A stretch of 27,706 bases of DNA. Origin: Gammaproteobacteria bacterium. Its GTDB lineage: Bacteria > Pseudomonadota > Gammaproteobacteria > UBA6429 > Thiohalophilaceae. Position 1 is the stretch's first letter. Each line of letters begins with the position of its first letter. The stretch is from assembly GCA_031405795.1 (NCBI GenBank), contig JANNJI010000175.1, forward strand, positions 1 to 27,706, in the 5' to 3' direction. A model generated the notes under the pieces. That model ran no database searches. It was given only the letters and a program-made list of their open reading frames with translations, and had not been told where the DNA came from. Shown here piece by piece: positions 11,533 to 27,706 of this stretch. The position numbers and the translations under genes are program-made.

Positions 11533-11534
11533 TG

Positions 11535-11565
11535 ACCGATCTTATGTAAGATACGGTATTTTTTT
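11535..11565 (+). terminator. Intrinsic terminator-like hairpin inside the operon
   Basis: ACCG-ATCTT-ATGT-AAGAT-A-CGGT followed by ATTTTTTT directly after the pvc16 stop. Confidence 0.45.
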
Positions 11566-11621
11566 GCATAGTTATATATTTAATCACAGCAGTGCCAGGA
11601 TATTATTAAGGAGAAAATGTT

Positions 11622-12944
11622 ATGGCAAATTATCTATCGCCGGGAGTTTATGTTCATGAGGTTCCTTCAGGCACGGCACCAATTAACGGTGTTGGAACAT
11701 CTACCGCTGGATTTATTGGTATCTTCGCTGATGTCATCCAAATTCCTTTTGAAAACCCTGACTATGATCCATCCAAGAAGGCTACTGAATCGGAAGCTGA
11801 ACCAGTTGATATGGCTGAGCCTGCGCCGGGCGCCGCTGCAAGAAGACGTGCGGCCAGAACAACAAGTGGTCAAAACAGTCCTTTTATAACGAAAGAGTTT
11901 AAACCAATCGATGCTGGTGAAGTTAAATTAGTCACCAATAAAAGCGAATTCAGAAAATTTTTTGGTGATTTTTCAACTGATGACGGCCATGGAAAATTGC
12001 TGCATGCGGTTAATGGATTTTTTGATAATGGTGGAACACGCTGTTTTGTTGTGCGCGTAAAAGAAAAATCCAAGATACTTACTACTGCGCTGGAAAAATT
12101 CGAATCCATCGATGAAATTTCTATCGTCGCGGCGCCCGGTATCGCCGATGCAGACGTACGTAGCGCACTTGTTACGCATTGTGAAAAAATGGGTGACAGA
12201 TTCGCAATATTGGATTGTGCGGAAGAAACCGAGACTGATGGAACCTTTGATCGGGATAAACTCAGTGAACCGCAGGATTCAAACTATGCTGCAGTGTATA
12301 TTCCCTGGTTTCGTGTTTTTGATCCGGCATTAAAAATCACCAATCCAGACGGAAATGGCAAACGTTATATTGCGCCGAGTGGTCACATTGCTGGTATTTA
12401 TGCACGTGTTGATGCTGAACGTGGGGTGCATAAGGCGCCAGCAAACGTAGTAATCAGAGGGGTGGCGAGCCCGGATGATCTTAAGTATCGCCTGAGCAAG
12501 GCACAGCAAGATGGATTAAATCCTGTTGGGATTAACTGTATACGCCACATAAATGGGAATGTGAAGGTGTGGGGCGCGCGAACCATCGGTGGCGCCAGAA
12601 ATGATGAATGGACATATGTATCAGTGCGACGACTGTTTCTTTATCTACGTGAATCTATTGATGAGGGCACCCAGTGGGTCGTATTTGAACCAAACACGCC
12701 TAACCTTTGGGCAAAAATAACGCGAAATATTACCGCCTATTTGACCAACGTATGGCGCGATGGTGCATTGTTTGGCAACAGCCCGCAAGAGGCTTTTTAT
12801 GTCAAATGTGATGCAGAAACAAATCCACCGGAAATACGTGATTTGGGACAGGTTGTAACTGAAATTGGTGTTGCTGTTGCCAGACCGGCAGAGTTTGTTG
12901 TATTCCGTATCAGTCAATGGCAAGCAGAAGCAACAGCCGAATAA
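11622..12944 (+). CDS. Contractile tail sheath protein 1
   Basis: YLSPGVYVHE, FFDNGGTRC, AAVYIPW, PSGHIAGIYARVDAERGVHKAPAN, VWGART, YVSVRRLF, RPAEFVVFRI. Confidence 0.96.
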   Translation: MANYLSPGVYVHEVPSGTAPINGVGTSTAGFIGIFADVIQIPFENPDYDPSKKATESEAEPVDMAEPAPGAAARRRAARTTSGQNSPFITKEFKPIDAGEVKLVTNKSEFRKFFGDFSTDDGHGKLLHAVNGFFDNGGTRCFVVRVKEKSKILTTALEKFESIDEISIVAAPGIADADVRSALVTHCEKMGDRFAILDCAEETETDGTFDRDKLSEPQDSNYAAVYIPWFRVFDPALKITNPDGNGKRYIAPSGHIAGIYARVDAERGVHKAPANVVIRGVASPDDLKYRLSKAQQDGLNPVGINCIRHINGNVKVWGARTIGGARNDEWTYVSVRRLFLYLRESIDEGTQWVVFEPNTPNLWAKITRNITAYLTNVWRDGALFGNSPQEAFYVKCDAETNPPEIRDLGQVVTEIGVAVARPAEFVVFRISQWQAEATAE

Positions 12945-12982
12945 TATAAATCCATTATCGGAAAAAACAGACCAGGAAAAAA

Positions 12983-14122
12983 ATGTCACAATATTATTCG
13001 CCCGGTGTTTACATACGAGAAATCGTTCCGCCACCCGCGCCTGGGTTGCAGACGGGCGTACCTGTTTTTATTGGCTACACACGATGCTCGCCAAATAAGA
13101 CAGATGATCAATCATCCTATGTGCTTACCAGCTGGCAGGATTTTCTGCAAAAGTTTGGAGAGCCGGTAACGACAGGTTTCCTGGGTTATGTGGTACAGGG
13201 ATTTTTCGAAAATGGCGGTAAGATTTGTTACGTTTATCCACTCGAGGGTGATATTGAAATTGCATTACGACGGTGTTTGGAATTTTTGGAGTCATGGGAA
13301 GAATGCGATCTTGTGTGTGCGCCAGATGTGATGCTAAATCCAGAAAATGCTATCGAGTTACAAAGGGCATTACTGGACCATTGTGAAAAACAAGGTAATC
13401 GATTTGCCGTACTGGATTCGCTTCACGCAAGTGATGAACATACCGTGGTACGGCAGCGGCAAGCACTGCGCTCGAATAACGGCGCACTTTATTATCCCTG
13501 GGTGGTTGTGAGTTCTGATACTGAGCCATGCGGTAAGGTTGTCCCGCCGTGTGGGCATGTCGCCGGGGTTTATGCAAGCACTGATAGGCAGATTGGCGTA
13601 CACAAAGCTCCGGCAAATGTGCAGCTTAAAGGTATTGTCGGTATTGAAAGTGATATTAATGTTGAGATACAAGATCGTTTAAATCCACACGGGATTAACT
13701 GTTTACGTATTTTTCCAGGCAGAGGTATTCGTATTTGGGGCGCAAGAACATTGAGTGCTACACCAACCTGGCGTTATATCAATGTGCGGCGGCTTTTAAT
13801 GAGTGTGGGATGCTGGTGCGATAAAAATCTATCCGATATTGTATTTGAAATTAATCATCCAAGATTATGGGCTCGCCTTGAACGTGCATTAACGGCCTAT
13901 TTAACAGAATTATTCATGCGTGGAGCATTGCAGGGTAAGTCAGCGCGTGAAGCGTTCTATGTTAAATGTGATGCCGACACAAACACTGTCAATATGATAA
14001 ATGCAGGAACAATTATAACTGAAATCGGGCTGGCACCATCAGTGCCAAGTGAATTTGTTGTAATGCACATTGTACATAGCAACAACGGTGTTCATTTATT
14101 AGATCGTATCTGGAATACATAA
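12983..14122 (+). CDS. Contractile tail sheath protein 2
   Basis: YYSPGVYIRE, FFENGGKIC, GALYYPW, PPCGHVAGVYA, GVHKAPAN, IWGARTL, YINVRRL, PSEFVV. Confidence 0.95.
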   Translation: MSQYYSPGVYIREIVPPPAPGLQTGVPVFIGYTRCSPNKTDDQSSYVLTSWQDFLQKFGEPVTTGFLGYVVQGFFENGGKICYVYPLEGDIEIALRRCLEFLESWEECDLVCAPDVMLNPENAIELQRALLDHCEKQGNRFAVLDSLHASDEHTVVRQRQALRSNNGALYYPWVVVSSDTEPCGKVVPPCGHVAGVYASTDRQIGVHKAPANVQLKGIVGIESDINVEIQDRLNPHGINCLRIFPGRGIRIWGARTLSATPTWRYINVRRLLMSVGCWCDKNLSDIVFEINHPRLWARLERALTAYLTELFMRGALQGKSAREAFYVKCDADTNTVNMINAGTIITEIGLAPSVPSEFVVMHIVHSNNGVHLLDRIWNT

Positions 14123-14141
14123 ATTATCAAGGAGAAAAGAC

Positions 14142-14597
14142 ATGGCAACAGGAGAACGAAGAGATCCTTACCGGCAATATAACTTCATTGTAGAAATGGA
14201 TGGTATAACCCGCGCTGGGTTTAAGGAATGTTTTGGTTTGGATTCAAGTCAGGACATTGTTAATTATCGCGAAGGCGGTGAAAAATTGTCGGTTCGGCAA
14301 TTGCCAGGATTGGTCAGATATTCAAGGATTGTTCTTATGCGGGGGGTTACCGATGATCCTGAGCTATGGAATTGGCGTAAAGATGCGCAAGATGGAAAGA
14401 TTAAACGCAAAAATGGCTCTATCGTTTTATTGGACGACACAGGCGCAGAAAAAGGTCGTTGGAACTTTACTGATGCATGGCCGGTGAAGTGGGTTGGCCC
14501 GCACTTTAATGCCACAGGTAGCGAGGTTGCGATTGAAACGCTTGAACTGACACATGAAGGCCTCGATAAAATAATGCAGGCAAAAGCGGGTAAGTAA
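14142..14597 (+). CDS. Tail tube protein 1 (T4 gp19-like, Afp1/5)
   Basis: DPYRQYNFIVE, YREGG, LPGL, IVLMRGVT, WNFTDAWPVKWVGP, AIETLELTHEG. Confidence 0.95.
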   Translation: MATGERRDPYRQYNFIVEMDGITRAGFKECFGLDSSQDIVNYREGGEKLSVRQLPGLVRYSRIVLMRGVTDDPELWNWRKDAQDGKIKRKNGSIVLLDDTGAEKGRWNFTDAWPVKWVGPHFNATGSEVAIETLELTHEGLDKIMQAKAGK

Positions 14598-14630
14598 TAA
14601 AGTGGAAGTCAACATAGGTATGGCGATCAG

Positions 14631-15107
14631 ATGCAAATAAATGTCAGAAAAGATCCCTATTTAGCCTTTAATTTTCTGGTTGAAATTGATGGCCTGCAAG
14701 TGGGTGGGTTCAATGAAGTCGAAGGTTTGCATCTTAAGGTTGAAACCATCGCTTATTGCGAAGGCGGTGGCGGTGGGACTGTGTATCATTTGGCAGGCGA
14801 GCCTCGTTATGGTTGTGTCACCTTAAGTCGCGGTATGACAACGTCAATGGATCTGTGGGATTGGGTATTAAAAACTGTCGAAGGTGAGATTGTTCCGCGT
14901 CAGGTATCGATTGTTTTACGGAATATAGATCCGGAGTTGGAAGAAACACGTTGGAACCTCGCAAATGCATGGCCGCGCGAATGGAAGGCAGGCTGTTTTA
15001 ATGCGTTGAAAAGTGCTTTTTCAATAGAAAGCTTGTCATTGGTATTTGGCAGTATAAAACGAGAAATAGGCAATGTTAAACAAGTTAAAGAAAATATTAC
15101 TGCTTAA
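14631..15107 (+). CDS. Tail tube protein 2 (gp19-like)
   Basis: DPYLAFNFLVEIDG, FNEVEGL, VTLSRGMT, WNLANAWPREWKA, IESLSL. Confidence 0.92.
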   Translation: MQINVRKDPYLAFNFLVEIDGLQVGGFNEVEGLHLKVETIAYCEGGGGGTVYHLAGEPRYGCVTLSRGMTTSMDLWDWVLKTVEGEIVPRQVSIVLRNIDPELEETRWNLANAWPREWKAGCFNALKSAFSIESLSLVFGSIKREIGNVKQVKENITA

Positions 15108-16131
15108 GCTCGAGCGTATACTGCGGAATTGGGCAGATGCAATCCTGAAACTAGTGACAATTCCACCGTCAGTGGACGAAATCAGCAATGATTCAGTAAA
15201 CGGCGAAGCCGTGTTGGATATGCCTGGTGAACAAGAGCCGCGCAATTCAAAAGAAACGAATTATGTAGCAGCGGAAAATATAAATAAAGAATTAATGTCG
15301 CGCCCAATAGTCACTTTTTCTAATACAGTTGACCTGGAAATAATGCCACAATCCGCAGCGGATGTTAACGAAAGTAGTGTAACTCCCACCAGTCTGCAGT
15401 CACCAGTTAATGATAGTGGTGCTGCTACACGTGGGGTTGTTGCAACGGAAAAAGAGAGGGACATAAAACCATTTTTAAATGAAACGGTACGGGAAATGGT
15501 CGGCGCGGGGTATGGCCAAGTTAAAACACAAAAAGATAAGTATAAAATCGAGAACTATATTACAGACGGTGGCATTCAATACCAACCAGCTGCATATAAC
15601 AAACACGAAATTCAGCAACACTATAGCCTTTTAGCAACAGGCCATTCCGATGATGATGGCTATAAAGCCGCATCATTAACGTTAAGCATTGTAAAACGTG
15701 AAAAATACAATGCATTTTATGCTGAATTTTACAACGAAAAAAACATATTCGATAAATCAGACGTCTGTATTGATGAGCCGCAAGAAAAAATAAATTTTAC
15801 ACGAAATATTGCAGAACATGTTCAGCATATTCCAGCATCAATCGTAAAGGGTAATTTCTATATTGCTGAAAAATCAATATCGGAGTCGGGCATAAAGACT
15901 GATCCAGGAGCAAGGCATTGGCCGGAACTTGGCGAATCCGCGCCAATAATTCATATTAATGATGGACATAACTCAAGCGGTAATGTGCAACATTGGCCGG
16001 AATTTCCCTTGATGGATCAAGTAATTGATACAGCGTATGTACATGAAATGTCGCATGCCGATTATTACCGTGAGCTTATGCATCGTCGTGAGCTGGATAT
16101 GGAACAACAAGGTCAAGTATGGAACGCGTAG
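15073..16131 (+). CDS. Hypothetical CIS-associated protein, mostly low-complexity
   Basis: Fills the gap between tube 2 and Afp7 and overlaps both. Amphipathic N-terminal helix and two HWPE motifs near the C-terminus. Confidence 0.7.
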   Translation: MLNKLKKILLLKLERILRNWADAILKLVTIPPSVDEISNDSVNGEAVLDMPGEQEPRNSKETNYVAAENINKELMSRPIVTFSNTVDLEIMPQSAADVNESSVTPTSLQSPVNDSGAATRGVVATEKERDIKPFLNETVREMVGAGYGQVKTQKDKYKIENYITDGGIQYQPAAYNKHEIQQHYSLLATGHSDDDGYKAASLTLSIVKREKYNAFYAEFYNEKNIFDKSDVCIDEPQEKINFTRNIAEHVQHIPASIVKGNFYIAEKSISESGIKTDPGARHWPELGESAPIIHINDGHNSSGNVQHWPEFPLMDQVIDTAYVHEMSHADYYRELMHRRELDMEQQGQVWNA

Positions 16132-16844
16132 CATTTCTGATTGAGAGCAGCGGCGAGCGCTTGGGATGCATGTTAAATCCCGGAAGCCTGGTTTTAAGAC
16201 GCCGTGCAGGGATAAAGTCACGTGAGTCAGTTGGCGGATTTATTACGGGCACTGAATTAGCCGATGAGCCATTGCAGTTAACTAATGGTGGCTGCACGGA
16301 GTTGACACTTGATCTGTTATTTGACGTGTCGTTACCAGGCTCATCGATCACGAGCAATGATGTCAGGGACTTAACCCGGCCGCTCTGGAATTTAGCGGAA
16401 AACACCAAGCAAGTCGACATGAACAAAAAACTCCCGTTGTGCTGTTTCCTGTGGGGTAAACAATGGAATATTCCAGGGGTCATCACAGCCATTGCCGAGC
16501 GGCTGGAGTTTTTTACACCGTCTGGTTTACCCAGGCGTTCCTGGTTGCGCCTGATATTAAGGCGTGTTGCCTCATCTGCGACACTGGCGCCAATGAATAA
16601 TATTGAAACTCAATTGCCTGATTTGGAACAAGCGGAATTCGATTTTCAAAATACGCTGATTGCCAGCGAAGAAAGTGATACTGAAGTTAAGATTACCGCG
16701 GTATCCGGTGAACGGTTGGATCAACTTGCCTATCGGTATTATGGTGATACACGATTCTGGCGGCATCTGGCCATATTTAATGATATTACCAATCCGTTGG
16801 ATTTAGCGGGTGGCGATTCAATCGAAGTACCGGCTTTAACATAA
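16119..16844 (+). CDS. Afp7/Pvc7-like tube initiator with C-terminal LysM domain
   Basis: MLNPGSL, TELTLDLLFD, FLWGKQW, ERLEFF..SGLPRR; LysM-like GERLDQLAYRYYGDTRFWRHLAIFNDITNPL. Confidence 0.88.
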   Translation: MERVAFLIESSGERLGCMLNPGSLVLRRRAGIKSRESVGGFITGTELADEPLQLTNGGCTELTLDLLFDVSLPGSSITSNDVRDLTRPLWNLAENTKQVDMNKKLPLCCFLWGKQWNIPGVITAIAERLEFFTPSGLPRRSWLRLILRRVASSATLAPMNNIETQLPDLEQAEFDFQNTLIASEESDTEVKITAVSGERLDQLAYRYYGDTRFWRHLAIFNDITNPLDLAGGDSIEVPALT

Positions 16845-16849
16845 GGATT

Positions 16850-18427
16850 GTGGTTATGGATATGTTAGTTTCGCTGCCGAAGTTAACCATCGAAATAAAT
16901 GGGACGGCTATGTCAGTTGCCGATGGGCGTGTGTTGTCGGGTTTACGGGTTCAACAGCGCCTTTCGTTGCCAACCTTGTGTGAAATGACTTTCATAGATC
17001 CAGATGGAACTATCGCAACGTCAAATCAATTAATAATAGGCGCAGAATTATATATTTCTATTGACAGCCAAAACACATCGCTGTTCCAAGGGCAAATTAC
17101 CGCGATAGAGTATGATTACGGCTCTTCAAATGATAGAACAGTTCGAATACGTGGTTATGATAATCTCCACCAACTTCGTAAACGTCAACCCGTGTGTGCA
17201 CATGTCGAAGTAACCCTTGTTGAATTGGCGCGGACATTTTCAGCGAGCCTAGGGATGTCAGTTGCAGCAACTGAAAGCGGGCCGGTCTGGAAAAAGCTTG
17301 TGCAGTTTCGCCAATCCGATCTGGAATTTATGACGGAACTTTCTGAGCGTTGCGGCTTGTACTTTACGCTACGAAATAATGTGTTGCAGTTTCTGACCTT
17401 AAAAGGGTTTGGCGAACCGGCTCTATTAGCACTGGGTGACTCGTTGCTTGAGGCGCGCGTTGTTGCAAATGGTGATCCTGCATGTCATTCCGTAACAACA
17501 ACAGGATGGGATCCTTGGTTAGCCGCAGAACACAGCGGTTATGCCAGTGTGGCGCGTGTTGGCCGTTCAGTAACTACCGAGATTCCAGCGGACAGCGTTG
17601 GTGGGACAGGTGAGCGGATACTGGTTGACGAAGTTGTTCAAAATGCCAGCCAGGCTGAGGTTATTGCCCAGGCCGAGCTTGATCGACGCGTGGCAGGAGC
17701 GGTGGTTTTTTTTGGCGTTGCTACCGGCAACGCGCAATTGCAGCCAGGTATACCGATCACTGTCAGTGGTATCGCAGATGCGATTAGTGGTAATTATGTA
17801 TTAACAGCGGTTACGCACACGATTGATCATAAACATGGGTTTTTGTCGATACTTGAAACCGCTCCGCCTCCGAACAGCAAAAAGAAACATAGCACGGCAA
17901 CTACCGTGGGTATTGTTACGCGGGTTGACGATCCGGAGGGCCTTGGTCGAATTCGTGTGAAGCTGCCAAATTACAATAATATCGAAACGGATTGGTTACA
18001 AATTGTGGCGCCGGGTGCAGGCAAAGATAAAGGTATTATTGCCTTAAACGACATTGGTGATCGGGTTTTACTTGTGTTTAATCACGGTGATCCTGCACAG
18101 GCTATTGTACTCGGTGGTCTTTATGGCTCTGTGTCACCACCCGATGCGGGTGTGGTCAATGGTGCAATTCGCCGTTATCTTTTTCAGACGCCTGGTGGGC
18201 AACGTATAAAACTGGATGATGAAAAAGATACGGTAGCCATTTCTAACGGCAAAGGCACAACAGTTAGCTTGTCGCCTGGCAGAGCAAAAATCACCAATAG
18301 CGATGGCAGTTATATCGAACTATCCCGTGAAAAACTCACCATCCATTCCAAAGTTAAGCTGGAGATCGAAGCGCCAGGACAGGCAATAGTCATGCGTGGC
18401 CAATCGATTGATTTTGCGAGGGCATGA
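16850..18427 (+). CDS. VgrG-like spike / baseplate hub (Afp8-like, gp27-gp5 fusion)
   Basis: LFQGQITAIE, QFRQSDLEF, YVLTAVTH, OB-fold GIVTRVDDPEGLGRIRVKLP, DIGDRVLLVF..GDPAQAIVLGGLY. Start may be the ATG at 16856 (better RBS spacing). Confidence 0.92.
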   Translation: MVMDMLVSLPKLTIEINGTAMSVADGRVLSGLRVQQRLSLPTLCEMTFIDPDGTIATSNQLIIGAELYISIDSQNTSLFQGQITAIEYDYGSSNDRTVRIRGYDNLHQLRKRQPVCAHVEVTLVELARTFSASLGMSVAATESGPVWKKLVQFRQSDLEFMTELSERCGLYFTLRNNVLQFLTLKGFGEPALLALGDSLLEARVVANGDPACHSVTTTGWDPWLAAEHSGYASVARVGRSVTTEIPADSVGGTGERILVDEVVQNASQAEVIAQAELDRRVAGAVVFFGVATGNAQLQPGIPITVSGIADAISGNYVLTAVTHTIDHKHGFLSILETAPPPNSKKKHSTATTVGIVTRVDDPEGLGRIRVKLPNYNNIETDWLQIVAPGAGKDKGIIALNDIGDRVLLVFNHGDPAQAIVLGGLYGSVSPPDAGVVNGAIRRYLFQTPGGQRIKLDDEKDTVAISNGKGTTVSLSPGRAKITNSDGSYIELSREKLTIHSKVKLEIEAPGQAIVMRGQSIDFARA

Positions 18428-18765
18428 TGAAAATAATGACACAAGATGCAATCGTCGTATGTGCGCATGAAACCGGTATTGTTGGGATTATAGCGACACA
18501 AAACCTGGTGACCGTCACAGGTCGAGGGGTTTTAGTCGAAGCCGATCCGGAACAACGCCCAATTGTGGGCTGCCCAATGGTGGGTGTCGGTATTTTTCCG
18601 TGCCTTCAAACATTGAGAGTCCAGGCTGGTTATTCCGATTTAATTCGAATTGAAAATCGTCGAGTGTGCCTGGATACCGTGACGGGGCTTACCAATGGAA
18701 CACCACCGGGCACCGTCATCTATAAAGTACGCAAACCAGGCCAGGATTTAGTTTCGGAGGTGTAA
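18424..18765 (+). CDS. Probable spike-tip protein (PAAR-like / Afp10 position)
   Basis: Small beta-rich ORF between spike and gp25 with CAH, GCP, PC and VC metal-ligand candidates. No literal PAAR motif. Confidence 0.65.
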   Translation: MMKIMTQDAIVVCAHETGIVGIIATQNLVTVTGRGVLVEADPEQRPIVGCPMVGVGIFPCLQTLRVQAGYSDLIRIENRRVCLDTVTGLTNGTPPGTVIYKVRKPGQDLVSEV

Positions 18766-18766
18766 T

Positions 18767-19183
18767 GTGGCTATAAAAAATCGTGCAGTGTATTTTCACC
18801 ATCCGGATTTCGATTCGATCGACAGCATGGCAGGTTTACAGATTACCAAAAATGGTGGTCTGCAAATGGTTGACGAAGATGCCTCGGTGCGCCAAGCGAT
18901 ATTATTAATATTATCCACTGCAAAAGGCGAACGAGTAATGCGGCATGATTACGGGTGTGATTTGGATCAATTGGCATTTATGCCAACAGATGAGACAACA
19001 CTCGGTCTGGCCATTCATCTTGTACGCCAGGCATTGAGACAATGGGAGCCGAGGATTGATATCCTGCACTTGGATGCGGAGTTTAATAAAAACGAATCCT
19101 CCAGGATGGATATTATGCTGAATTACCGCGTTCGTCGTACTTCAGCCACTGGCAACATGATTTTTCCAATAACTATGTCGTAA
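18767..19183 (+). CDS. GPW/gp25 baseplate wedge protein (Afp9-like)
   Basis: SVRQAILLILSTAKGERVMRHDYGC, ALRQWEPRI. GTG start. Confidence 0.93.
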   Translation: MAIKNRAVYFHHPDFDSIDSMAGLQITKNGGLQMVDEDASVRQAILLILSTAKGERVMRHDYGCDLDQLAFMPTDETTLGLAIHLVRQALRQWEPRIDILHLDAEFNKNESSRMDIMLNYRVRRTSATGNMIFPITMS

Positions 19184-19193
19184 ACAGAATAAT

Positions 19194-21797
19194 ATGACGC
19201 TACCAACGCCTAAACTTGATGACCGCAGATTCGACGACCTTGTCGCTGAGGGACGCCGTAGAATTGCACAACGCTGCCCCGAATGGACCGATTTAACGGT
19301 AAACGATCCTGGCATGATGTTGTTAGATGTATTTGCGTATTTAACAGACATCATGATGTTTCGGTTGAATCAAGTGCCGGAAAAAAATTATGTGCGTTAT
19401 TTACAACTGATTGGTGTGCAAATACAGCCGCCGGCTGCTGCAAGTGTCCGGCTGACATTCAAAGCGAGTCGTCCACAGGATAAGCCATTGGAAATTAAGC
19501 GTGGCACACGGGTGACAACCGCGCATGCAACAGGAAGCTCCGGCTCACCCGTGTTTGTAACTGCAGAGACGATTACTCTGGCCGAGGGTGCAATACAATC
19601 CGAAGTGATGGCCTATCACTGTGACATGATCGAAACAGAATTTGCCGGTTATGGTACCGGCATGCCGGGCTTGGCTATATCCGCACGCCAACCACCTATT
19701 GTTGCGCCGATTGGCGATAGTTTAAACCTTGTTGTTGCCGTTGAGGCTATTCACGAAGAGTTGGAAGTAGGCACCGCAGCGATAAACCATGAAGGAAAAA
19801 CCTATCGAGTTTGGCGTGAGGTGGAAGATTTCAGTAATGTGGGTGATGATAAATATGTTTATGTTGCCGACCGGACCAATGGCGTTATCAATTTTGCCCC
19901 CGCATTGCGCATGCAAAAGAAAGGCGGCGCGTTGGCGGAATTACCAGAAGCCTTGGCAGCCATTCCTAAAGATGGCGCAGGCATTCTGCTGTCATATTTT
20001 CGCGGCGGTGGTATGGAAGGCAATGTCAGTGCCAAAACATTAACTGTACTGAAAGATCCTTTACCCGGTCTTGATGTTAGCAACGCCGACCCTGCCACGG
20101 GTGGGCGTGCAGTCGAAAGCCTGGAAAATGCCTTATTACGAGGTCCGATTGAGCTTCATTCCTTACGTCGGGTGGTGACCGCCAGAGATTTTGAGTTGGT
20201 CGCAACACGCAATTCCGGCGCAATTGAACAAGCGCAGGCCTTTACCAAAGCGACACAATGGTGTTTTGCAACACCTGGCACCGTACAAATATTATTGGTC
20301 CCGCAGGTACCAAAAGAAATGCGCGGGGCATTTGGTCAGGTTACTGTCGAGACGTTACAAAAGCATCAGACCGATACGGCACGCATACAGATACAACAGA
20401 TTATCGATGAAAGAAAGCCCATGGGAATTACCACAGAGGCGATTTGGACACGACTCAAAACGGTTCAAGTAAAGGCGCGTGTTATTGTGCATCGCGAGGA
20501 AGACGCAGCAGCAGTGAAACAGCGTTTATTACAACGACTCTATCAAACCATCAGCCCCTTAGCGACACCACCCAATGTCAAAGCGTGGTCGTTTGGCCGA
20601 TCCTTAACAGGTTGGGATGTTTATAAGATCATGAGTTATGAACCTGGCGTCATCTCTGTCGCGCAGGTTCGTCTTGTCGTTGAGAATGCACCTGATAAAG
20701 CAGTGCGTGCACTCGCCGCAGATATGTATCAGCCTGACACGTGGTATGTTGGTGAAGAAAACATGTGCTTCAGAACATTAAATAATGCCAATGGCTGGGA
20801 AACTGTCGGGCAGTTTAACGGTGAAGTGATCGATTTAATCAAACCGTATCCGCCGGAGATTGGTGCGCTATCAAAACATGCAGGCCTGGTAGCGATTGCG
20901 ACGCGGTTAGATGGAGAAAAGTCTGGCTCACGCTTGCATTTTTCACGTGACTGTGGAGAGAGTTGGGAGTTGGGCCCACAAACGAAATTTCATATTCAAG
21001 ATATGGCTTGGATCGAGCGTGACGGTGTTGCCAATCTATTGCTTGCCACCGAGTTAGGTTTGTTTCAAGTTGAAGCAAAACCCGGTGCGGTGCCGCGACA
21101 AATCGTGGTGGATGAGGCGAGTAAAGATCTTGGTTTTGTGGCGGTGGTTGTCGCGACCGGTGCCTGGGGTGGTACCAGTGTTGCTGTGGCGGCACGCGGC
21201 GAACGAGGTGTGTTTCTTTCATCCGAAGGTGGCCGACCAAATACATTCAAACCAATTGGTCTTGATGGTGAGGTGATTCCTGTACTTGCCGTGCAACGAC
21301 GTGACCTGGATCAATATTTATGGGCGGGGGTTGCTGCGCCCGGAGATCAAGCTGGCACGGGTTGTTATCGTTGGCGCCTGACCGGTTCAGTGGAAAATAA
21401 TGAAGGCTGGCGGCCTTATAACACAGGTTGGAAAGGCGGTAGTTGCCGTTCATTGGCCTTTCAACGTTCGCGTATTTTTGCGGCTACATCACGATTAGGC
21501 GTTTTACGCTTGGATGTGGATGCACAAGATCCAACCTGGTTGATTCCAGACGTGAGTTGTGGATTGCCACTACATGAAGTCGGCAGATTGGAAATTGTGG
21601 ACAGTGTCGTGACAGATCCGGCAGGAAAGTTTGTCATCGCGGCAGGAATAAAAGGTATTTATCGTAGCGAGGACAGTGGTGTTAACTATGTTAAGTGTTC
21701 CAACAATGAGTTTACGGATGAAGTGACGCTGCCAAAAACGTGGTTGTTTTGTTCTGCCGAACATGACATAGAGGTGGTCAGCGAAGATGAAGCATAG
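19194..21797 (+). CDS. Baseplate J-like assembly protein (Afp11-like) with inserted beta-propeller
   Basis: LPTPKLDDRRFDDL, WTDLTVNDPG, RLNQVPEK, NADPATGG..ES, RRVVTARDFE. From about aa 500 there are Asp-box-like motifs (SRDCGESW, SEDSGVNY). Confidence 0.92.
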   Translation: MTLPTPKLDDRRFDDLVAEGRRRIAQRCPEWTDLTVNDPGMMLLDVFAYLTDIMMFRLNQVPEKNYVRYLQLIGVQIQPPAAASVRLTFKASRPQDKPLEIKRGTRVTTAHATGSSGSPVFVTAETITLAEGAIQSEVMAYHCDMIETEFAGYGTGMPGLAISARQPPIVAPIGDSLNLVVAVEAIHEELEVGTAAINHEGKTYRVWREVEDFSNVGDDKYVYVADRTNGVINFAPALRMQKKGGALAELPEALAAIPKDGAGILLSYFRGGGMEGNVSAKTLTVLKDPLPGLDVSNADPATGGRAVESLENALLRGPIELHSLRRVVTARDFELVATRNSGAIEQAQAFTKATQWCFATPGTVQILLVPQVPKEMRGAFGQVTVETLQKHQTDTARIQIQQIIDERKPMGITTEAIWTRLKTVQVKARVIVHREEDAAAVKQRLLQRLYQTISPLATPPNVKAWSFGRSLTGWDVYKIMSYEPGVISVAQVRLVVENAPDKAVRALAADMYQPDTWYVGEENMCFRTLNNANGWETVGQFNGEVIDLIKPYPPEIGALSKHAGLVAIATRLDGEKSGSRLHFSRDCGESWELGPQTKFHIQDMAWIERDGVANLLLATELGLFQVEAKPGAVPRQIVVDEASKDLGFVAVVVATGAWGGTSVAVAARGERGVFLSSEGGRPNTFKPIGLDGEVIPVLAVQRRDLDQYLWAGVAAPGDQAGTGCYRWRLTGSVENNEGWRPYNTGWKGGSCRSLAFQRSRIFAATSRLGVLRLDVDAQDPTWLIPDVSCGLPLHEVGRLEIVDSVVTDPAGKFVIAAGIKGIYRSEDSGVNYVKCSNNEFTDEVTLPKTWLFCSAEHDIEVVSEDEA

Positions 21798-22332
21798 CGA
21801 TATTCAAAAACTACTGCCGGAAGTTTATCAGCGTGGCTTGCAGACGGGTAAACCACTGGATGCATTATTGGATGTCATGATTGGCATGTTTTCGCCGTCA
21901 GAAACGGTATTGGAAAAAATTGATACGTATTTTAGCCCTTATACGGCGCCGGATGCATTTGTCCGCTACCTGGCGAAATGGGTTGATCTTGATCGCTATC
22001 TTGGCACAACAACAGAGCGATCGTCTTCATCACAATTGGCCCCGGTGGTAATAGAACCTGGGCGCTTACGTGAACTTGTTGCGAAAGCGGCAGAGTTGTC
22101 ACAATGGCGTGGCACCGCCAAAGGATTACAGGTTTTTTTAGAAACAGCAACAGGCGTCCGTGGTTTTATAATTGATGAGGCGGTGACAGATAAAGACAGT
22201 ACCAAGCGAGTTTTTCATATTCTGATTCGCGCCCCACAGGCCGCGTCACAATACCAACAACTCATTACCCGAATTGTCAATGGTGAAAAACCGGCATATG
22301 TCACTTACGAACTTGAGTTTAGCCAGATTTAA
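21787..22332 (+). CDS. Phage tail protein (P2 gpI-like) baseplate component
   Basis: LLPEVYQ, FSPYTAPDAFVRYLAKWV, RLRELV, WRGTAKGLQVFLE, EKPAYV. Confidence 0.88.
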   Translation: MKHSDIQKLLPEVYQRGLQTGKPLDALLDVMIGMFSPSETVLEKIDTYFSPYTAPDAFVRYLAKWVDLDRYLGTTTERSSSSQLAPVVIEPGRLRELVAKAAELSQWRGTAKGLQVFLETATGVRGFIIDEAVTDKDSTKRVFHILIRAPQAASQYQQLITRIVNGEKPAYVTYELEFSQI

Positions 22333-22346: not shown

Positions 22347-23714
22347 ATGGCAACAATAGCTACAATTCAATTGCCAGAAGGTGATCAACGCGTTATCAAG
22401 ATAAAACCAGGCGATCATGTGGAAAAAACCTTTACAGTTTCCAACATATACGGATCACAGTTACGCATCGGCTTTCAATGTCAATTTGACAAACCAGAGC
22501 AAAAAAAATGGGCCAAGCCCAAAGAACCAGTCGAACGTGATTTTGGCGACCAGGGATCAGAGCAAGTCAAACTCGAGATACAGATACCAAAAGATGCCGT
22601 TCCGGGCAAATATAATCTAAAACTGTTGGTTTATTCTTTAAAAGATCCAAATCTTGACTTCACCTTGTCTGATCCCATTGTTGTCGAGGTAACCGCTGTG
22701 GATGCTATCGCGCCAAAGCCAAAACAAATATGGCCGTGGATCGTGGCAGGTGTAACAACACTGCTGATCATTGGTGTAGTGACGTGGATATTACTGCCAA
22801 CAAACGTGATAATCCCCAATCTTGTTGGTAAACCCATTGATGAAGTAACCACGCTGTTAGAAGGCAAAAAAATACCTCTCGGCGAAGTTACCGAAGAAAG
22901 GACCGGCAAGGCACAAGTGGGGGAGGTTTTGTCGCAGTCACCAGCGGCGGATACCACAGTAAAAAAATCGGATCTAAAACCCATAAAATTGGTTGTTGAA
23001 ATATTTTCTGTCGGCGTACCCGACGTAAAAGGGATGACGGTTACTCAAGCCCAGCATGAATTTAAATTGAATGGATTAAAATTGGGTGCTGTCAATGAGC
23101 AAAAAACTGGATCCGCACCCGGTGGAACTGTTTTAAAAACCGATCCGGAAATTGGTACACGTGTAGCACCGGATGCTGAAATTATGTTATCGGTGGAAAC
23201 ACAATCTGTAATCATCCCCAGTGTGGCAGGACAGTTGCTAACGCAAGCCAAGCCGGTACTGGAAGGATTGGGTTTAATGGTTCAAGTGGAACTGGTGAAA
23301 ACCGGGGCGCAAGGCTTACATGTTCTGAGTACACGACCCGTCTCAGCGACTGCTGTAAAACCCGGCTCAACAGTTGTCTTGGTTGTTGAGAAACAGATGT
23401 TGTCTATTCCGAATTTCAGCGGTCAAAACCTGGATAGTGTCGTCAATCAACTCAATAATATGAATCTGCGGTTGGGTGCAGTCAGAAGAGTGTTTGTAAT
23501 TGGTAGGTCTACCAATACAGTTCTGTCGCACATTCCTGCTGCGGGTGCTTCGGTTGATCCGCTTACACCGTTAACTTTTATTGTTACCCAGGGTTCGTCG
23601 ACGATATATCCCTACAAGGCGGTCATTTCACCCACTTTTAATATGAAAAGTATAAATACATTGGGGGTAATACGTCGTGAAGTGGCACCACTGGTGGCGC
23701 CAGAGAAACAATAA
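22347..23714 (+). CDS. Single-pass membrane protein: N-terminal Ig-like domain, TM helix, 4 PASTA domains
   Basis: TM segment IWPWIVAGVTTLLIIGVVTWILL. Four repeats beginning IPNLVG, VPDVKG, IPSVAG, IPNFSG, each ending in a V..Q/T.P..G..V......L.V pattern. Confidence 0.82.
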   Translation: MATIATIQLPEGDQRVIKIKPGDHVEKTFTVSNIYGSQLRIGFQCQFDKPEQKKWAKPKEPVERDFGDQGSEQVKLEIQIPKDAVPGKYNLKLLVYSLKDPNLDFTLSDPIVVEVTAVDAIAPKPKQIWPWIVAGVTTLLIIGVVTWILLPTNVIIPNLVGKPIDEVTTLLEGKKIPLGEVTEERTGKAQVGEVLSQSPAADTTVKKSDLKPIKLVVEIFSVGVPDVKGMTVTQAQHEFKLNGLKLGAVNEQKTGSAPGGTVLKTDPEIGTRVAPDAEIMLSVETQSVIIPSVAGQLLTQAKPVLEGLGLMVQVELVKTGAQGLHVLSTRPVSATAVKPGSTVVLVVEKQMLSIPNFSGQNLDSVVNQLNNMNLRLGAVRRVFVIGRSTNTVLSHIPAAGASVDPLTPLTFIVTQGSSTIYPYKAVISPTFNMKSINTLGVIRREVAPLVAPEKQ

Positions 23715-24161
23715 AGAATGAGAAGCAAATTACATTGTATGGAAAAAATAATGACCATTTTTTGTTTACTCTGGCCGCTGTCTTGAAGCAGGTTAAATGT
23801 ATATGAGGAGAAAGTTATGGCAACAATAACGACGATTCAATTGCCGGAAGGCGATAAACGAAGTATTAAGATAAAACTAGGCGAGCGTGCGGAAAAAACC
23901 TTTACGGTTACTAACGTCTACGGCTCCCGCTTGCGCATTGGCTTTCAAACTCAGTTTGACAGTCCACAGCAAAAGAAATGGGCAAAACCTAAAGAACCGG
24001 TTGAACGTGATTTGGGTGATCAGGGATCAGAACAAGTTACGCTTGTCATCGATGTACCGAAGGATGCGGCGCCTGGCAAATACAACCTTAAATTACTGGT
24101 CTATTCGCTGAAAGATCCCAACCTCGACTTTACGTTGTCAGATCCCATTGTTATAGAGGTT
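22347..24161 (+). repeat. Duplicated N-terminal module (22347-22691 and 23817-24161)
   Basis: Manual alignment gives 95 of 115 identical residues between the two N-termini. Confidence 0.95.
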
Positions 24162-24734
24162 CCTGCACCTGATGTTGTCGCAGCACCTGTGCCGAAAATA
24201 AAAATGTGGCCATGGATACTGGCTGGTGTAGCCGTGTTGCTCATTGTCGGTGGAGTAATTACCTGGGTGATCTTGTCATCGGGAGCGAAAGAGCCGGATG
24301 TGGTGGTCAAACCGCCCCCGCCAGATAAGCCAGCTACCCAGAATCCCCCGGCTGCTCAGCGTGCCTGCCCTTATGGTGCGGACCAATGTCTTCCAGAATT
24401 TGTTTGGCGCGAGGCATTTGCTGGAGACCATGTGTGTGTAACACCCGATGTTCGTGCGCAGACAATGGCTGACAATCGGATGGCCGCATCGAGAAGATCA
24501 GTCAGGGGAGGCGCATATGGGCCGGATACCTGCCTGATGGGCTTTGTTTGGCGCGAGGCCTCGCCGACTGACCATGTTTGTGTCACTGGTCAAACTCGCA
24601 CTCAGGCGAGTAATGACAACTTAGCGGCACGGTCACGACGCGACCCCGAGTGCAATCGCCTGTTACAGATACGTCCATTCAAGGCGATGGAAGGAATACG
24701 CCGTGAGGCACCGCCGCCGGAACCAAACAAATAG
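23817..24734 (+). CDS. Single-pass membrane protein: same N-terminal domain, TM helix, Pro linker, two 48-aa Cys repeats
   Basis: TM segment MWPWILAGVAVLLIVGGVITWVIL. Repeats YGADQCLPEFVWREA...DHVCVT...DN and YGPDTCLMGFVWREA...DHVCVT...DN. Confidence 0.85.
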   Translation: MATITTIQLPEGDKRSIKIKLGERAEKTFTVTNVYGSRLRIGFQTQFDSPQQKKWAKPKEPVERDLGDQGSEQVTLVIDVPKDAAPGKYNLKLLVYSLKDPNLDFTLSDPIVIEVPAPDVVAAPVPKIKMWPWILAGVAVLLIVGGVITWVILSSGAKEPDVVVKPPPPDKPATQNPPAAQRACPYGADQCLPEFVWREAFAGDHVCVTPDVRAQTMADNRMAASRRSVRGGAYGPDTCLMGFVWREASPTDHVCVTGQTRTQASNDNLAARSRRDPECNRLLQIRPFKAMEGIRREAPPPEPNK

Positions 24735-24831
24735 GCTGAATGTGAATAGTTAATACCAGCGCGGTGAATAAATATATGGAAACATGCAAACGGTAACACT
24801 AGAGTCATAAAACAAATAGTATGGAAACAGT

Positions 24832-25410
24832 ATGGATACGAAGAAACTGGTAATAATTGCGTTGGTAATGATGGCGGTCTTGTATCTCGCTGGTGTGGGC
24901 ACGCACTTTGCGTCGAAGGAGTGCGATAACAAAAGCACTGACGCGTGCAAAGACAGCTACATTGCCAAATCCGGCAAGTCGGGAGGAAAAGGCAGCTGGG
25001 AGAAATCGTTGGGCGAGCTGATGTCTCCTTTTGCTCCCGGGCTGCCGGTGGCAAAGTTGCTCGATGATAACAAGACAAGCTGTGACTCAGTGTTGTATCA
25101 ATCACAATACCGGGTGATTCAGTTATCCAGCAGCAAACTGTCGTGCCGGATAGCGATTACGGCATTCACAGAAGATGACTTCCGCAAAGGCACACTGACA
25201 CTGATGGAACCGGCTGGCGCCCGGATCAAAGTGCAGTTTACATCCAATGATCCCGAGGTAAAGTCAGAGAAGGACGAAAATAAGCTGCCCATACTCACTG
25301 ACAATGCACCGGTGAACATCACTGTGATGGCAACGGGGGGGACGCTGGTACTGTCGTGCATGAACTGTAATGGTTCTGGTAACAATCTGGTACGGGTGAA
25401 ATTCAAATGA
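24832..25410 (+). CDS. Hypothetical protein with N-terminal signal/anchor helix
   Basis: MDTKKLVIIALVMMAVLYLAGVG followed by a soluble beta-rich domain with several Cys. Confidence 0.7.
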   Translation: MDTKKLVIIALVMMAVLYLAGVGTHFASKECDNKSTDACKDSYIAKSGKSGGKGSWEKSLGELMSPFAPGLPVAKLLDDNKTSCDSVLYQSQYRVIQLSSSKLSCRIAITAFTEDDFRKGTLTLMEPAGARIKVQFTSNDPEVKSEKDENKLPILTDNAPVNITVMATGGTLVLSCMNCNGSGNNLVRVKFK

Positions 25411-25440
25411 TGTGTAACGAGATGCACACAGGGAAATGAC

Positions 25441-26130
25441 ATGCTGGATTCATTGAGAAAGCCGCTTTTTATTATTGCCTTGATATTGCTGGTAATTGCC
25501 GTGCTCGTGGAAATGGGTTCAGTACTGCTCGCTGAAACAATAAAAAATGCGCCCCAGCCTGGTCTGGGTATTTCGTATCTGGTGTTGATCGATGGGATGC
25601 TGCTTTACATCATCTGCTTAATTGGCGTTGCGCTGATTCTGCCAGAACGAGTTTATGGACGCGTCCAGGGTGTGATCACGTTTATAGTTTCGTTATTGAT
25701 ATTGCTTGGCTCGATCGTGCTGATATTTAAAGCGCTATTGTTATTAATGTTAATGTTGTCATTGTTGATGGCTGTGCCATTTGGAACCATCGCCTATTTT
25801 GCACTATACGCAGATTTTAATACGAAAGGTGCGGCTGTTACGCTGGGAATAATCATGTCGTTAAAGTTATTTTTTGCCGGATTTCTGGTGTTTTCGCACC
25901 AGCGGTTTTTGCAAAACAAGAGCCTCATATTTTTGATCCTGACATCACTGCTGGCGAGCATCATTGTTAGTTTTTTACATGGGTTTGTCCCGGGGTTTCT
26001 CGTTAGCATAACAGATGCCATCGGCGCACTTGTTATTGCTATTCTAGCGGCGATATGGGCAGTATTTTTGTTAATTGGTTCTATCCCGGCAATTATAAAG
26101 GCATTGAGGGTTGATAGAGCGCTAAGTTAA
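25441..26130 (+). CDS. Polytopic membrane protein (about 6-7 TM helices)
   Basis: Almost entirely hydrophobic segments separated by short polar loops. Confidence 0.8.
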   Translation: MLDSLRKPLFIIALILLVIAVLVEMGSVLLAETIKNAPQPGLGISYLVLIDGMLLYIICLIGVALILPERVYGRVQGVITFIVSLLILLGSIVLIFKALLLLMLMLSLLMAVPFGTIAYFALYADFNTKGAAVTLGIIMSLKLFFAGFLVFSHQRFLQNKSLIFLILTSLLASIIVSFLHGFVPGFLVSITDAIGALVIAILAAIWAVFLLIGSIPAIIKALRVDRALS

Positions 26131-26202
26131 TTATTTGTAACCCATATGTAACAATTTTTTTGATATAAATATGCTTATTAATAAAAATATTAAGGAAATA
26201 CC

Positions 26203-26871
26203 ATGTCAGAATTGGTAAAAGGACTTTTGACTGTCGTCGTCAGTACGGTACTGATGACAGGCATGTTTGTACTATTAAACATTATTTCTGGCGACATCAT
26301 TCCGCTTGGTTGGGCTGCGTTAATCGGTGCATTATTTGGATTTGGTTATGGCTTAGAAGCCGGAATCGTCGGGATTTATCCATTATCAGAGTTTAAAGGT
26401 TGGCTGGAACTGATTATTGATGCGACCTGGAGCCTGCCTAACACTGTATTTGGTTTCATTTTCGCCAACTGCATTTATCCATTTTTCGGCAACATTTCAA
26501 AAACTCGCAGTAAGGATAGCGGTTGGATTGTCTATATGCCGACCTCAACCGGTAGCGGATTTGGTAATTCCGTATTACAGACATTGGGAACAATCAACTT
26601 AGGTGGCGCAGGGCAACACGAACGTATGCATCTGTTACAGGCAAGGATATTAGGTCCCCTCTATTTGACGCTTTATGCGATTAACTACATTGTCACTTTC
26701 CTGATTCAGGTTTTATGGACATTTACTGTCGGCGGACTGTTGTGGCTGCTTAAAGTACGTAATAAACCCTATTTTAATCCATCAGGACATTCCGCTGTAC
26801 CAGGATTTTTCGGCTGGATTTATTATGCCACGGTATTTGAATTATGGGCATATGCATCGGGTAATCCCTGA
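26203..26871 (+). CDS. Membrane protein with Gly-rich helices and HExxH motif
   Basis: N-terminal TM helices, GALFGFGYGLEAG, WSLPNTVFG, QHERMHLLQARILGPLY, C-terminal FELWAY. RBS AAGGA. Confidence 0.72.
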   Translation: MSELVKGLLTVVVSTVLMTGMFVLLNIISGDIIPLGWAALIGALFGFGYGLEAGIVGIYPLSEFKGWLELIIDATWSLPNTVFGFIFANCIYPFFGNISKTRSKDSGWIVYMPTSTGSGFGNSVLQTLGTINLGGAGQHERMHLLQARILGPLYLTLYAINYIVTFLIQVLWTFTVGGLLWLLKVRNKPYFNPSGHSAVPGFFGWIYYATVFELWAYASGNP

Positions 26872-26944
26872 TCGCCAAGTAAGATGTATTTTGTATTGGA
26901 AATTATGTACCAATAGGATGTTAACTAAAAAAGGAGAAGCTTGT

Positions 26945-27316
26945 ATGGCAAGAAGCGTAGTACCAACTGAACCATTTCGTGAAAAATTATTGAAATTCTG
27001 TCCAACAGAAACGGTAGGCGCCTGTCTGGCAGCGTTAGGCATGCTTTCTGCGATGGACCCCGGCACATTGCATACCACATTGCTGTGGGTTGTTTTTGCG
27101 GCTGGTCTTATTGCGACACCATTCTGGCTTATTTATAAAATGGATATGCGCAAGCCTTTGCAAGTGATCGTCGCGACGCTTGCATTCATTATTTGGATGA
27201 TGACGATTGACGGCGGGCCGTTTTCAACGATACCCGGCTATCAATTAGTGATTGGTTCAGTGGCGCTGATTATTTTTTCAGGATTTATCGCACCACTGCT
27301 TGGTAATATTGAGTAG
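26945..27316 (+). CDS. Small 4-TM membrane protein, paralog A
   Basis: True start is probably the ATG at 26945 (AAGGAG upstream) rather than 26825. KLLKFCPTE...TPFWLIY...LQV...FIIWMM. Confidence 0.8.
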   Translation: MARSVVPTEPFREKLLKFCPTETVGACLAALGMLSAMDPGTLHTTLLWVVFAAGLIATPFWLIYKMDMRKPLQVIVATLAFIIWMMTIDGGPFSTIPGYQLVIGSVALIIFSGFIAPLLGNIE

Positions 27317-27386
27317 TAATGCTTTCATTCAGTGATGTTGTGCATAACATAGTCAATTTTAAAATTTAAAAACAAGGAGATACAAC

Positions 27387-27706
27387 GTGGCTAGTTCAGG
27401 GAATATAAATAGATCGATTGATCGTGATGATGTTTATAGCAAACTCTTGCTTAAGATGCTGCCAACGGAAATGGTAGGCGTCTGTTTGGCGGTGATTGGT
27501 ACAATATTTTCGTTCACGGAACCAGGTGGGCTGCAAACAGGACTATTGTGGACTGTATTTGCGGTAGGACTAATCGCAACCCCTTTTTGGCTTATTTATG
27601 GCATGGAAATCAAAAAACCATTGCAGGTCGTTATCACCACGATCGGTTTTGTTATCTGGATGATGACGATGAAAGGTCCGTTTACCACATTACCTGGTTA
27701 CCAACT
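27387..27706 (+). CDS. Small membrane protein, paralog B (3' truncated, absent from the ORF track)
   Basis: AAGGAG then GTG at 27387. Translates as MASSGNINRSIDRDDVYSKLLLKMLPTEMVGVCLAVIG...GLIATPFWLIYGMEIKKPLQVV...IWMMTMKGPFTTLPGYQ, open to the window end. Confidence 0.85.
   Translation, partial: MASSGNINRSIDRDDVYSKLLLKMLPTEMVGVCLAVIGTIFSFTEPGGLQTGLLWTVFAVGLIATPFWLIYGMEIKKPLQVVITTIGFVIWMMTMKGPFTTLPGYQ

Follow-up and report, generated by a model that had tools for sequence, protein, structure and literature searches.

A candidate envelope module encoded beside a Streptomyces-like contractile injection system in a gammaproteobacterium

Contig JANNJI010000175.1 of an uncultured freshwater gammaproteobacterium from the family Thiohalophilaceae (assembly GCA_031405795.1) encodes a contractile injection system (CIS), and directly behind the last baseplate gene of this system follow seven genes for membrane proteins, here called g1 to g7. 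The window that we analyzed is one entire contig of 27,706 nucleotides. On balance we favor, with modest confidence, the interpretation that g1–g4 (22347–26130) form an envelope module, which couples a distinct clade of Streptomyces-like CIS, marked by a long extension of the baseplate protein Cis11, to the membrane and the cell wall. Membrane adaptors of CIS are known as a kind; the new element would be an adaptor variant that includes a conserved g4 protein of unrecognized fold. The locus bears on the question of how fibre-less cytoplasmic machines meet the membrane, for which the adaptor CisA is known only in Streptomyces and relatives, and it indicates that machines of a sister clade have a conserved membrane set of their own, which occurs in seven phyla. 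The original prediction, made from the sequence alone, had described seven consecutive same-strand membrane-protein open reading frames (ORFs) after the gpI-like gene, namely two single-pass proteins, one signal-anchored protein, one polytopic protein, one HExxH protein and two small paralogs. All seven were found again, with the types that had been claimed.

The first gene of the group, g1 (22347–23714, plus strand), encodes a protein of 455 aa with an Ig-like head (aa 1–120), a single hydrophobic segment (aa 127–160), four PASTA repeats and a short conserved C-terminal tail. The PASTA match scores 123.8 bits in Pfam against a cut-off of 23.2 (E 2.6e-36), the repeats also match NF033483 along its PASTA part, and neither Pfam nor NCBIfam detects an attached kinase or transpeptidase domain. 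The second gene, g2 (23817–24734, plus strand; 305 aa), is a paralog with the same head and helix (aa 127–158): its first 153 aa are 76% identical to g1, and beyond this point the two proteins are unrelated. The outer domain of g2 is a Cys-rich tandem repeat that gave no Pfam or NCBIfam match, and the Atlas yielded no usable result for it.

An exhaustive HMMER search with aa 1–128 of g1 as the query defined a head family of 245 representative clusters at E <=0.001. The architecture is well preserved among its members, with one hydrophobic helix starting within residues 100–190, just past the head, and a variable C-terminal part behind it in 140 of the 151 members examined. PASTA is the outer domain in 82 of 149 members, and the others found include PAN, ricin, PKD, Lcl_C, beta/gamma-crystallin, DM9, laminin-G, PG_binding_1 and a PD40 propeller. 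Judged from these domain matches, the outer parts are binding modules rather than enzymes. Such external-type domains (PASTA, lectins), together with a bias in the distribution of Lys and Arg (more before the helix in 78 proteins, more after it in 30) and with Cys being three-fold commoner in the C-terminal part of head-family proteins, point to a topology of g1 and g2 in which the N-terminus is inside and the C-terminus outside. This is the orientation that had been proposed from Lys residues ahead of both single-pass helices, and these residues are present (APKPKQ in g1, PVPKIK in g2). The head was modeled as an Ig-like beta-sandwich of the ASH/PapD/MSP kind with a predicted local distance difference test score (pLDDT) of 92, and the modeled fold is a typical protein-binding module. 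Compared with solved CIS parts, the head had no sequence match, and its top 50 structural matches contained no CIS chain; it is a generic Ig sandwich.

Among the related loci described below (numbered with the prefix L), two from Chloroflexota (L026, 14416–15822, and L025, 7574–9262) hold a second paralog with Ig head and transmembrane helix (Ig-TM) that carries a TolB-like PD40 beta-propeller in place of PASTA, so the outer module seems to be freely exchanged. Many proteobacterial Ig-TM members end, regardless of the outer domain, in a shared short tail of approximately R-x-V/I-x-P-E, examples being IRREVAPLVAPEKQ, IRREAPPPEPNK and PRSVEPADE. This tail is found at 23600–23714 and 24650–24734 of the window and at the C-termini in L017, L023, L029–L031, L080, L082 and L086, and it is missing from actinobacterial members. 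The tail could serve as a peptide onto which a partner in the periplasm or the outer membrane docks.

The injection machine that precedes these genes is complete by Pfam and of the phage-tail-like kind (10963–22332). Its structural genes from cap to gp25 (10963–19183, plus strand) encode a cap (Pvc16_N), two sheath proteins, two gp19-type tube proteins, a CIS_tube/LysM-like tube initiator, a VgrG spike and gp25. They are followed on the same strand by the baseplate J or Cis11 homologue (19194–21797; Baseplate_J, E 9.9e-11), a protein of 867 aa with a long C-terminal extension, and by the gpI or Cis12 baseplate wedge gene (21787–22332; Tail_P2_I, E 1.9e-6), whose stop lies 14 bp before the start of g1. 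The claim that g1–g7 occupy the tail-fibre slot of a real CIS is thus borne out by a Pfam-complete cluster. Sheath, tube, VgrG, gp25, Cis11, Cis12 and Pvc16 genes stand together in one cluster, as in the Afp/PVC/CIS-Sc lineage (Pfam). In a search of solved structures, the sheath was nearest to the Streptomyces CIS sheaths 8bky and 8bl4 (E ~1e-99), compared with E 1e-45 or weaker for the tCIS, PVC, AFP and AlgoCIS sheaths, and the nearest solved chain for the J protein was S. coelicolor Cis11 (9gtp, 652 aa, E 9.4e-56). Judged from these matches, its nearest relative is the cytoplasmic CIS of Streptomyces (dbeCIS subtype IId). The J protein of the window is ~215 aa longer than S. coelicolor Cis11; for its extension (20690–21797, the C-terminal third) we keep the label “propeller” that the earlier reader had given it, meaning a beta-propeller. 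The full-length form is 46–76% identical among three relatives that were aligned, and the extension is kept in all 80 related loci. Pfam revealed no tail fibre (Afp13-type) gene among the ORFs of the window, and also no AAA+ ATPase (Cis15) gene, which may sit elsewhere in the genome, the contig being only 27.7 kb. Pfam and NCBIfam found no homologue of TssJ, TssL or TssM among g1–g7, in agreement with the earlier description of the complex as a non-TssJLM one.

Two proteins within the machine cluster have no family match. The first, of 352 aa (15073–16131), is encoded between the tube and tube initiator genes and has counterparts of 373, 406 and 679 aa in L003, L011 and L014, a length variation as for a tape-measure protein. 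The second, of 113 aa (18424–18765), follows VgrG in the position of a PAAR-like tip and is 78% identical in L003.

The evidence for an association of g1/g2 with this machine comes from the distribution of the head family. When an alignment of the J protein was run against genomes chosen at one per species, it recovered 80 loci, which belong to Gamma- and Alphaproteobacteria, Desulfobacterota, Chloroflexota, Actinomycetota (mostly Micromonospora and Dactylosporangium), Acidobacteriota and Gemmatimonadota. A locus was taken as assessable if it extended at least 1.5 kb beyond gpI, which was the case for 73. The head family is present in 71 of these 73 loci; in 70, its gene is the next one after gpI and has the same orientation. 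Six related loci have two head-bearing genes, as the window does. These 80 loci are not independent, since 45 are from Micromonosporaceae-like actinomycetes. In every phylum that could be assessed, the association between head and J nevertheless holds, apart from Acidobacteriota, whose only assessable locus was negative; the loci that carry the head family belong to Gamma- and Alphaproteobacteria, Desulfobacterota, Chloroflexota, Actinomycetota and Gemmatimonadota.

Looking from the head family toward the machine gave the same picture. Six further family members were looked up, and all three that could be judged follow gpI; of the other three, two are on contigs that are too short and one has a partial upstream ORF that was not identified. 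In five whole genomes, all head copies are located at the CIS locus, and no member of the head family was detected in 400 other Pseudomonadota genomes. Among 301 Actinomycetes genomes sampled, 40 contain a Cis11 homologue, and in two of them it is of the full-length type. Strong head matches (E <1e-12) were obtained only in these two genomes and in none of the 38 where Cis11 has no extension. Weak head matches (E 1e-4 to 9e-7) were seen in four further Actinomycetes genomes, and any Cis11 found there was on a different contig.

The next two genes complete the part of the group that is conserved. The g3 protein (24832–25410, plus strand; 192 aa) is a small Cys-containing protein with a hydrophobic N-terminal segment (aa 1–28), predicted to be exported or signal-anchored. 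Profile searches found g3 homologues in 22 loci, and in the four profile-negative loci that were checked (L036, L054, L059 and L081) a signal-anchored ORF of 150–190 aa is present at the g3 position. The g4 protein (25441–26130, plus strand; 229 aa) is a membrane protein with 6–7 helices. Its family occurs in 67 of 80 loci, with direct phmmer matches of E 1e-33 to 1e-129 in 66 related loci, and shows 35–70% identity across phyla and invariant residues E24, D51, K142 and D192 in or near helices. On the basis of these alignments, the conservation of g4 is the strongest in the module. Its model (pLDDT 93.4) gave no significant match in PDB, and the AFDB matches are uncharacterized relatives. A cation-diffusion-facilitator membrane-domain fold was considered for g4 and not used, as the likeness is weak (TM score 0.5–0.67, E ~0.01).

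By the same counts, g1/g2, g3 and g4 are the conserved envelope set, with g5 as a looser companion and g6/g7 as local additions. Of the seven-protein envelope module that the original prediction had put forward, a conserved trio or quartet is therefore left, and the remaining genes are accessory. Likewise, the predicted co-occurrence with CIS loci was found for g1/g2 and g4, in part for g3, where it is positional, and for g5 (35 of 80 loci), but not for g6/g7, which occur in only 4–5 of 80. Profiles of g4 and g5 had no match in the three Streptomyces-type CIS regions that we examined.

A mechanism consistent with these observations would be as follows. The machine would assemble in the cytoplasm, and g1 and g2 would be single-pass inner-membrane proteins that turn the constant Ig head toward the cytoplasm and the variable wall- or glycan-binding domain outward. 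The Ig heads would bind the periphery of the baseplate, possibly the clade-specific Cis11 extension or Cis12; as the extension and the head co-occur, the extension is the obvious candidate for the partner of the head. The outer domains could hold, or report on, peptidoglycan or glycans, so that the machine would be docked perpendicular to the membrane and its firing coupled to the state of the envelope. The small exported partner g3 together with g4 would complete the membrane platform, g5 would be a further CIS-linked membrane HExxH protein, g6 and g7 would be lineage-specific small partners, and the caspase-like C14 proteins encoded downstream would be candidate cargo. Firing could be either outward, as in the type VI secretion system (T6SS), or self-killing, as in Streptomyces; C14 genes after the module would fit a death program.

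Several known anchors of contractile machines can be compared with g1–g4. In Streptomyces, CisA (SCO4242) is a bitopic protein with its N-terminus inside, encoded just after the baseplate genes and needed for contraction and firing of the CIS; firing occurs upon envelope stress (nisin) and requires CisA, which is toxic in E. coli (PMC12237407). Like CisA, g1 appears to be bitopic with the N-terminus inside, has an outer domain of a sugar- or wall-binding type, and is encoded directly after the baseplate genes, in the fibre position of a CIS without fibres. In the Streptomyces-type loci L103 and L105, which come from actinomycete genomes, the protein encoded after gpI combines a zinc ribbon with a disordered, Pro-rich stretch, a helix and a C domain of the F5/8 type. 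The head profile gave no match to these CisA-type ORFs at E up to 10, and BLASTP gave E 19. Given that there is no sequence relation and that the domains differ, g1 is better described as a positional and architectural analogue of CisA than as a member of its family. A 2026 study reports that Roseiflexus has no close CisA homologue (PMC12998442). One genome in our collection, the chromosome of Verrucosispora sp. TAA-831 (G438), holds both kinds of machine (L036/L097 and L105/L115): the gene after gpI encodes an Ig-TM protein in the propeller-type CIS and a CisA-like zinc-ribbon protein in the Streptomyces-type CIS, the latter with a DUF4157 gene ~20 kb off.

In the thylakoid-anchored CIS (tCIS) of Anabaena, a predicted membrane helix of Cis13 (aa 122–154) anchors the machine, and removal of this helix frees it (PMC8894136). 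Cis13 resembles g1 in that it is encoded after Cis12, binds the baseplate by its N-terminal part and has its helix at nearly the same position, but it is fibre-derived, ends near the helix without a large outer domain and targets the thylakoid membrane. The head profile matched no CIS chain among all PDB chains at E up to 10, including All3316 (Cis13, 7b5h). Hbor_38620, the putative anchor of a haloarchaeal T6SS-like CIS, occurs in step with one Cis11 clade, and a membrane-bound mode of action was predicted from it (PMC11566945). Compared by description, the g1–g4 set shares with it the property of membrane proteins that track one Cis11 clade; Hbor_38620 unites six helices and a 150-aa cytoplasmic domain in one chain, whereas here these parts would be split between g4 (polytopic) and g1 (cytoplasmic). 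The g1–g4 set would also play the same role as TssJ-TssL-TssM, that of holding a contractile machine at the envelope, but TssJLM serves the T6SS, and the machine here is of the Afp/PVC/CIS-Sc lineage and not a T6SS-i. In the literature searched, we found no paper that joins CIS with PASTA domains in this sense.

A further comparison concerns Sco4256-58, three proteins of the S. coelicolor CIS cluster, each with one helix and a ricin-type end and all very similar at the N-terminus; mutants that lack them behave as if the CIS were lost and show empty-looking tubes, and the proteins are toxic in E. coli (PMC10066040). SCO4256 was recovered as a membrane O-glycoprotein, listed as a “putative hydrolytic protein” with one transmembrane segment (PMC6593405), which indicates that it is truly membrane-inserted. 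A Streptomyces-type cluster in a Micromonospora genome encodes a protein in which a pair of ASH-type Ig domains is followed by a helix and a C-terminal domain, and another Streptomyces-type cluster is adjoined by three tandem paralogs of this two-Ig-domain protein, for whose family the databases use the names “COG1470 family” or “Hydrolytic protein”. When the head family of g1 was aligned with 22 COG1470-family members by hhalign, it matched their first Ig domain over 96 columns (probability 92.5%, E 4.9e-7). Plain hidden Markov model searches between the two families were negative in both directions, and the relation is thus a remote one. At the level of sequence profiles, then, the head is a probable remote homologue of the N-terminal domain of the Sco4256-58 type. 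The likeness extends to the single helix, to an N-terminal domain that is common to paralogs, to the variable carbohydrate-binding C-terminus, and to the location of the genes in CIS clusters and their absence from CIS-negative strains. The actinobacterial COG1470 proteins differ in having two Ig domains ahead of the helix and in being encoded elsewhere in the cluster, not after Cis12. A weak head match in a Streptomyces-type cluster (L113, 12862–14577) was rejected, as it is a secreted VWA/Ig protein and not a family member. The suggestion that the locus might represent an undescribed subtype is only partly borne out, since the head has remote, Sco4256-58-like homologues in Streptomyces-type CIS clusters that have been studied under another interpretation.

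A number of observations weigh against g1–g4 being an envelope module for this clade. Sco4256-58 were read by their authors as tube-loaded CIS-associated effectors and not as adaptors (PMC10066040), and the COG1470 family was equated with Sco4256-58 by way of names, architecture and cluster position. Two loci, L035 (a Bryobacteraceae metagenome-assembled genome) and L063 (Dactylosporangium cerinum), keep the full-length J protein without the head family. L035 retains g5 and a 54-aa remnant of g4, L063 has no recognizable genes after gpI, and the modules in both look like decayed or rearranged ones. Distances between heads correlate about equally with those of every CIS protein (r 0.72–0.90), and since co-inheritance of neighbors is expected, this comparison singles out no partner. 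The g4 gene is often on the opposite strand in relatives and in one case upstream of the cluster, so co-transcription is no feature of the family and the module is not always one transcript. Lastly, binding of peptidoglycan by PASTA domains in a diderm periplasm is assumed.

A different explanation would be that g1 and g2 are cargo, that is, effectors in which the conserved N-terminal domain serves as a loading signal and the helix and variable end act on the target membrane or wall after injection. The profile-level homology of the head to the family that fits the description of Sco4256-58 is in favor of this explanation, given that those proteins are toxic in E. coli and that their deletion results in empty-looking tubes and no CIS-dependent death (PMC10066040), and polymorphic effectors are usually built in this way, with a head that stays constant and a tail that varies. 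However, binding modules (PASTA, lectins, PKD, PD40) make up the variable ends, which are neither enzymes nor pore formers, and the family is near-universal in the clade and fixed beside the baseplate genes, whereas cargo genes usually vary. A folded head of 120 aa followed by a helix and a 300-aa outer domain would also be easier to reconcile with insertion into the membrane during translation than with storage inside a tube, and the toxic effect in E. coli is unspecific for a membrane protein that is over-expressed, as CisA is toxic too (PMC12237407). Because of the binding modules, of the near-universal and fixed presence of the family, and of the recovery of SCO4256 as a membrane glycoprotein in vivo (PMC6593405), we rate the cargo explanation lower and consider it unlikely.

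Another possibility is that the module serves mainly for sensing and less for mechanical anchoring. In kinases of the PknB type, muropeptides are sensed by PASTA domains, and the g1 repeats match the PASTA part of NF033483. The PASTA or lectin domains would then detect muropeptides or wall damage, the head would signal to the baseplate or to regulation, and a free machine would fire and kill the cell, with a contribution from the caspase-like neighbors. Firing of the Streptomyces CIS on nisin stress, with its need for CisA (PMC12237407), would agree with such a role, as would the C14 peptidase genes that follow the module in the source genome and four relatives; C14 linkage, however, is seen in only 8 of 80 loci, and the head has no attached signaling domain such as a kinase or cyclase. 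Sensing and anchoring are compatible functions, and there is a large overlap between this explanation and the envelope module that we favor; as a replacement for it, a pure sensor seems quite improbable to us.

We consider it very unlikely that the genes are a lysis or release cassette, or unrelated envelope genes beside an extracellular CIS that is freed by lysis: extracellular CIS do depend on lysis for release, g3 and g4 are small membrane or exported proteins, like holins and spanins, and g6/g7, and in part g5, lack a general link to the clade, but no endolysin is present, g4 with its 6–7 helices and its identity across phyla is unlike holins, and a released particle would need a tail fibre gene, of which none was seen in the window. 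A mere chance neighborhood is ruled out, because the head is found only at CIS loci in five genomes and is present in 71 of 73 loci.

Returning to the envelope module, a wider form of this idea can be put forward as a tentative proposal that we would regard as possible but doubtful. The proteins with Ig head, transmembrane helix and binding domain, the small exported protein and g4 might constitute a third, non-TssJLM membrane complex, one that uses the Cis11 propeller to dock the whole clade (in Micromonospora as well as in sulfur-cycling proteobacteria and Chloroflexota) to the cytoplasmic membrane, with the status of the wall deciding on firing; Sco4256-58 would then be adaptors of the same descent. 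The remote homology to the Streptomyces “effectors” invites re-examination of that assignment. Since carriers of the module include cultured, tractable actinomycetes (Micromonospora, Dactylosporangium) as well as Desulfobacter curvatus DSM 3379, these ideas can be tested at the bench.

The remaining genes of the group are less tightly linked to the machine. The g5 protein (26203–26871, plus strand; 222 aa) is a membrane protein with a Gly-zipper N-terminus and a HERMH motif. In Micromonospora loci, the family member lies on the far side of the cluster, 7–8 kb upstream of J. The family shares the invariant motif HExxHxxQ..GP...E..Y, in which H139, E140, H143 and E213 are invariant among 16 aligned members; with HExxH and a downstream Glu, g5 is a putative zincin at the level of its motif. 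Neither Pfam nor NCBIfam gave a family match for g5. We rejected an assignment to DUF4157/eCIS_core as unproven: the Atlas gave a hint of only 0.85, Pfam no match, and an hhalign comparison of the g5 family with four DUF4157 domains aligned only the 12 columns around HExxHxxQ (probability 13.6%). PF13699 was not found in the source genome.

The gene g6 (26945–27316, plus strand) encodes a small membrane protein of 123 aa with three helices. Its listed ORF was 26825–27316, but the ATG at 26945 has a Shine-Dalgarno site and a 98–99% identical genome has an ORF of 123 aa, and ATG 26945 is most likely the true start. Its paralog g7 (27387–27706, plus strand; ORF 27387–27704) is 55% identical, likewise has three helices and is cut by the contig end. 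With a presence in so few loci, g6 and g7 are lineage-specific additions. A 5500-bp contig of the same genome (C134) starts with a 94% identical copy of the g7 end, followed by a second HExxH paralog (HEEVH, 31% identical to g5) and then by two Peptidase_C14 genes, and is probably the continuation of the locus. Correspondingly, a near-identical genome (G001, 98–99%) has a second HExxH gene directly 3′ of g7. The arrangement of two HExxH genes flanking two small paralogs, from g5 to g7 and on into C134, suggests cognate pairs. C14 genes are also found 3′ of the g4 homologue in L017, L082 and L086.

With regard to expression, the only exact plus-strand match to TGGCAC-N5-TTGC outside ORFs is at 10618–10632, ahead of the cap gene, and is a candidate -24/-12 promoter for sigma-54 in front of the CIS cluster; a gene for a bacterial enhancer-binding protein (bEBP) is located at 7740–9128. 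The intergenic gaps among the module genes are 14–102 bp and contain no terminator-like sites on the plus strand. The close spacing, the terminator-free gaps and the single -24/-12 match are compatible with one long operon, though they do not prove it.

Elsewhere on the contig, a Cas6 gene (677–1366; Pfam E 3.4e-57) adjoins a DsrC-like gene (1496–1834), and neither a CRISPR array nor a further cas gene is present on the contig. A DUF6866 protein is encoded on the minus strand (5701–6744), amid two 2OG-Fe(II) oxygenases and a GNAT acetyltransferase and upstream of the bEBP gene, with no evident link to the CIS. Lastly, DNA of the window was matched in freshwater-sediment DNA metagenomes.

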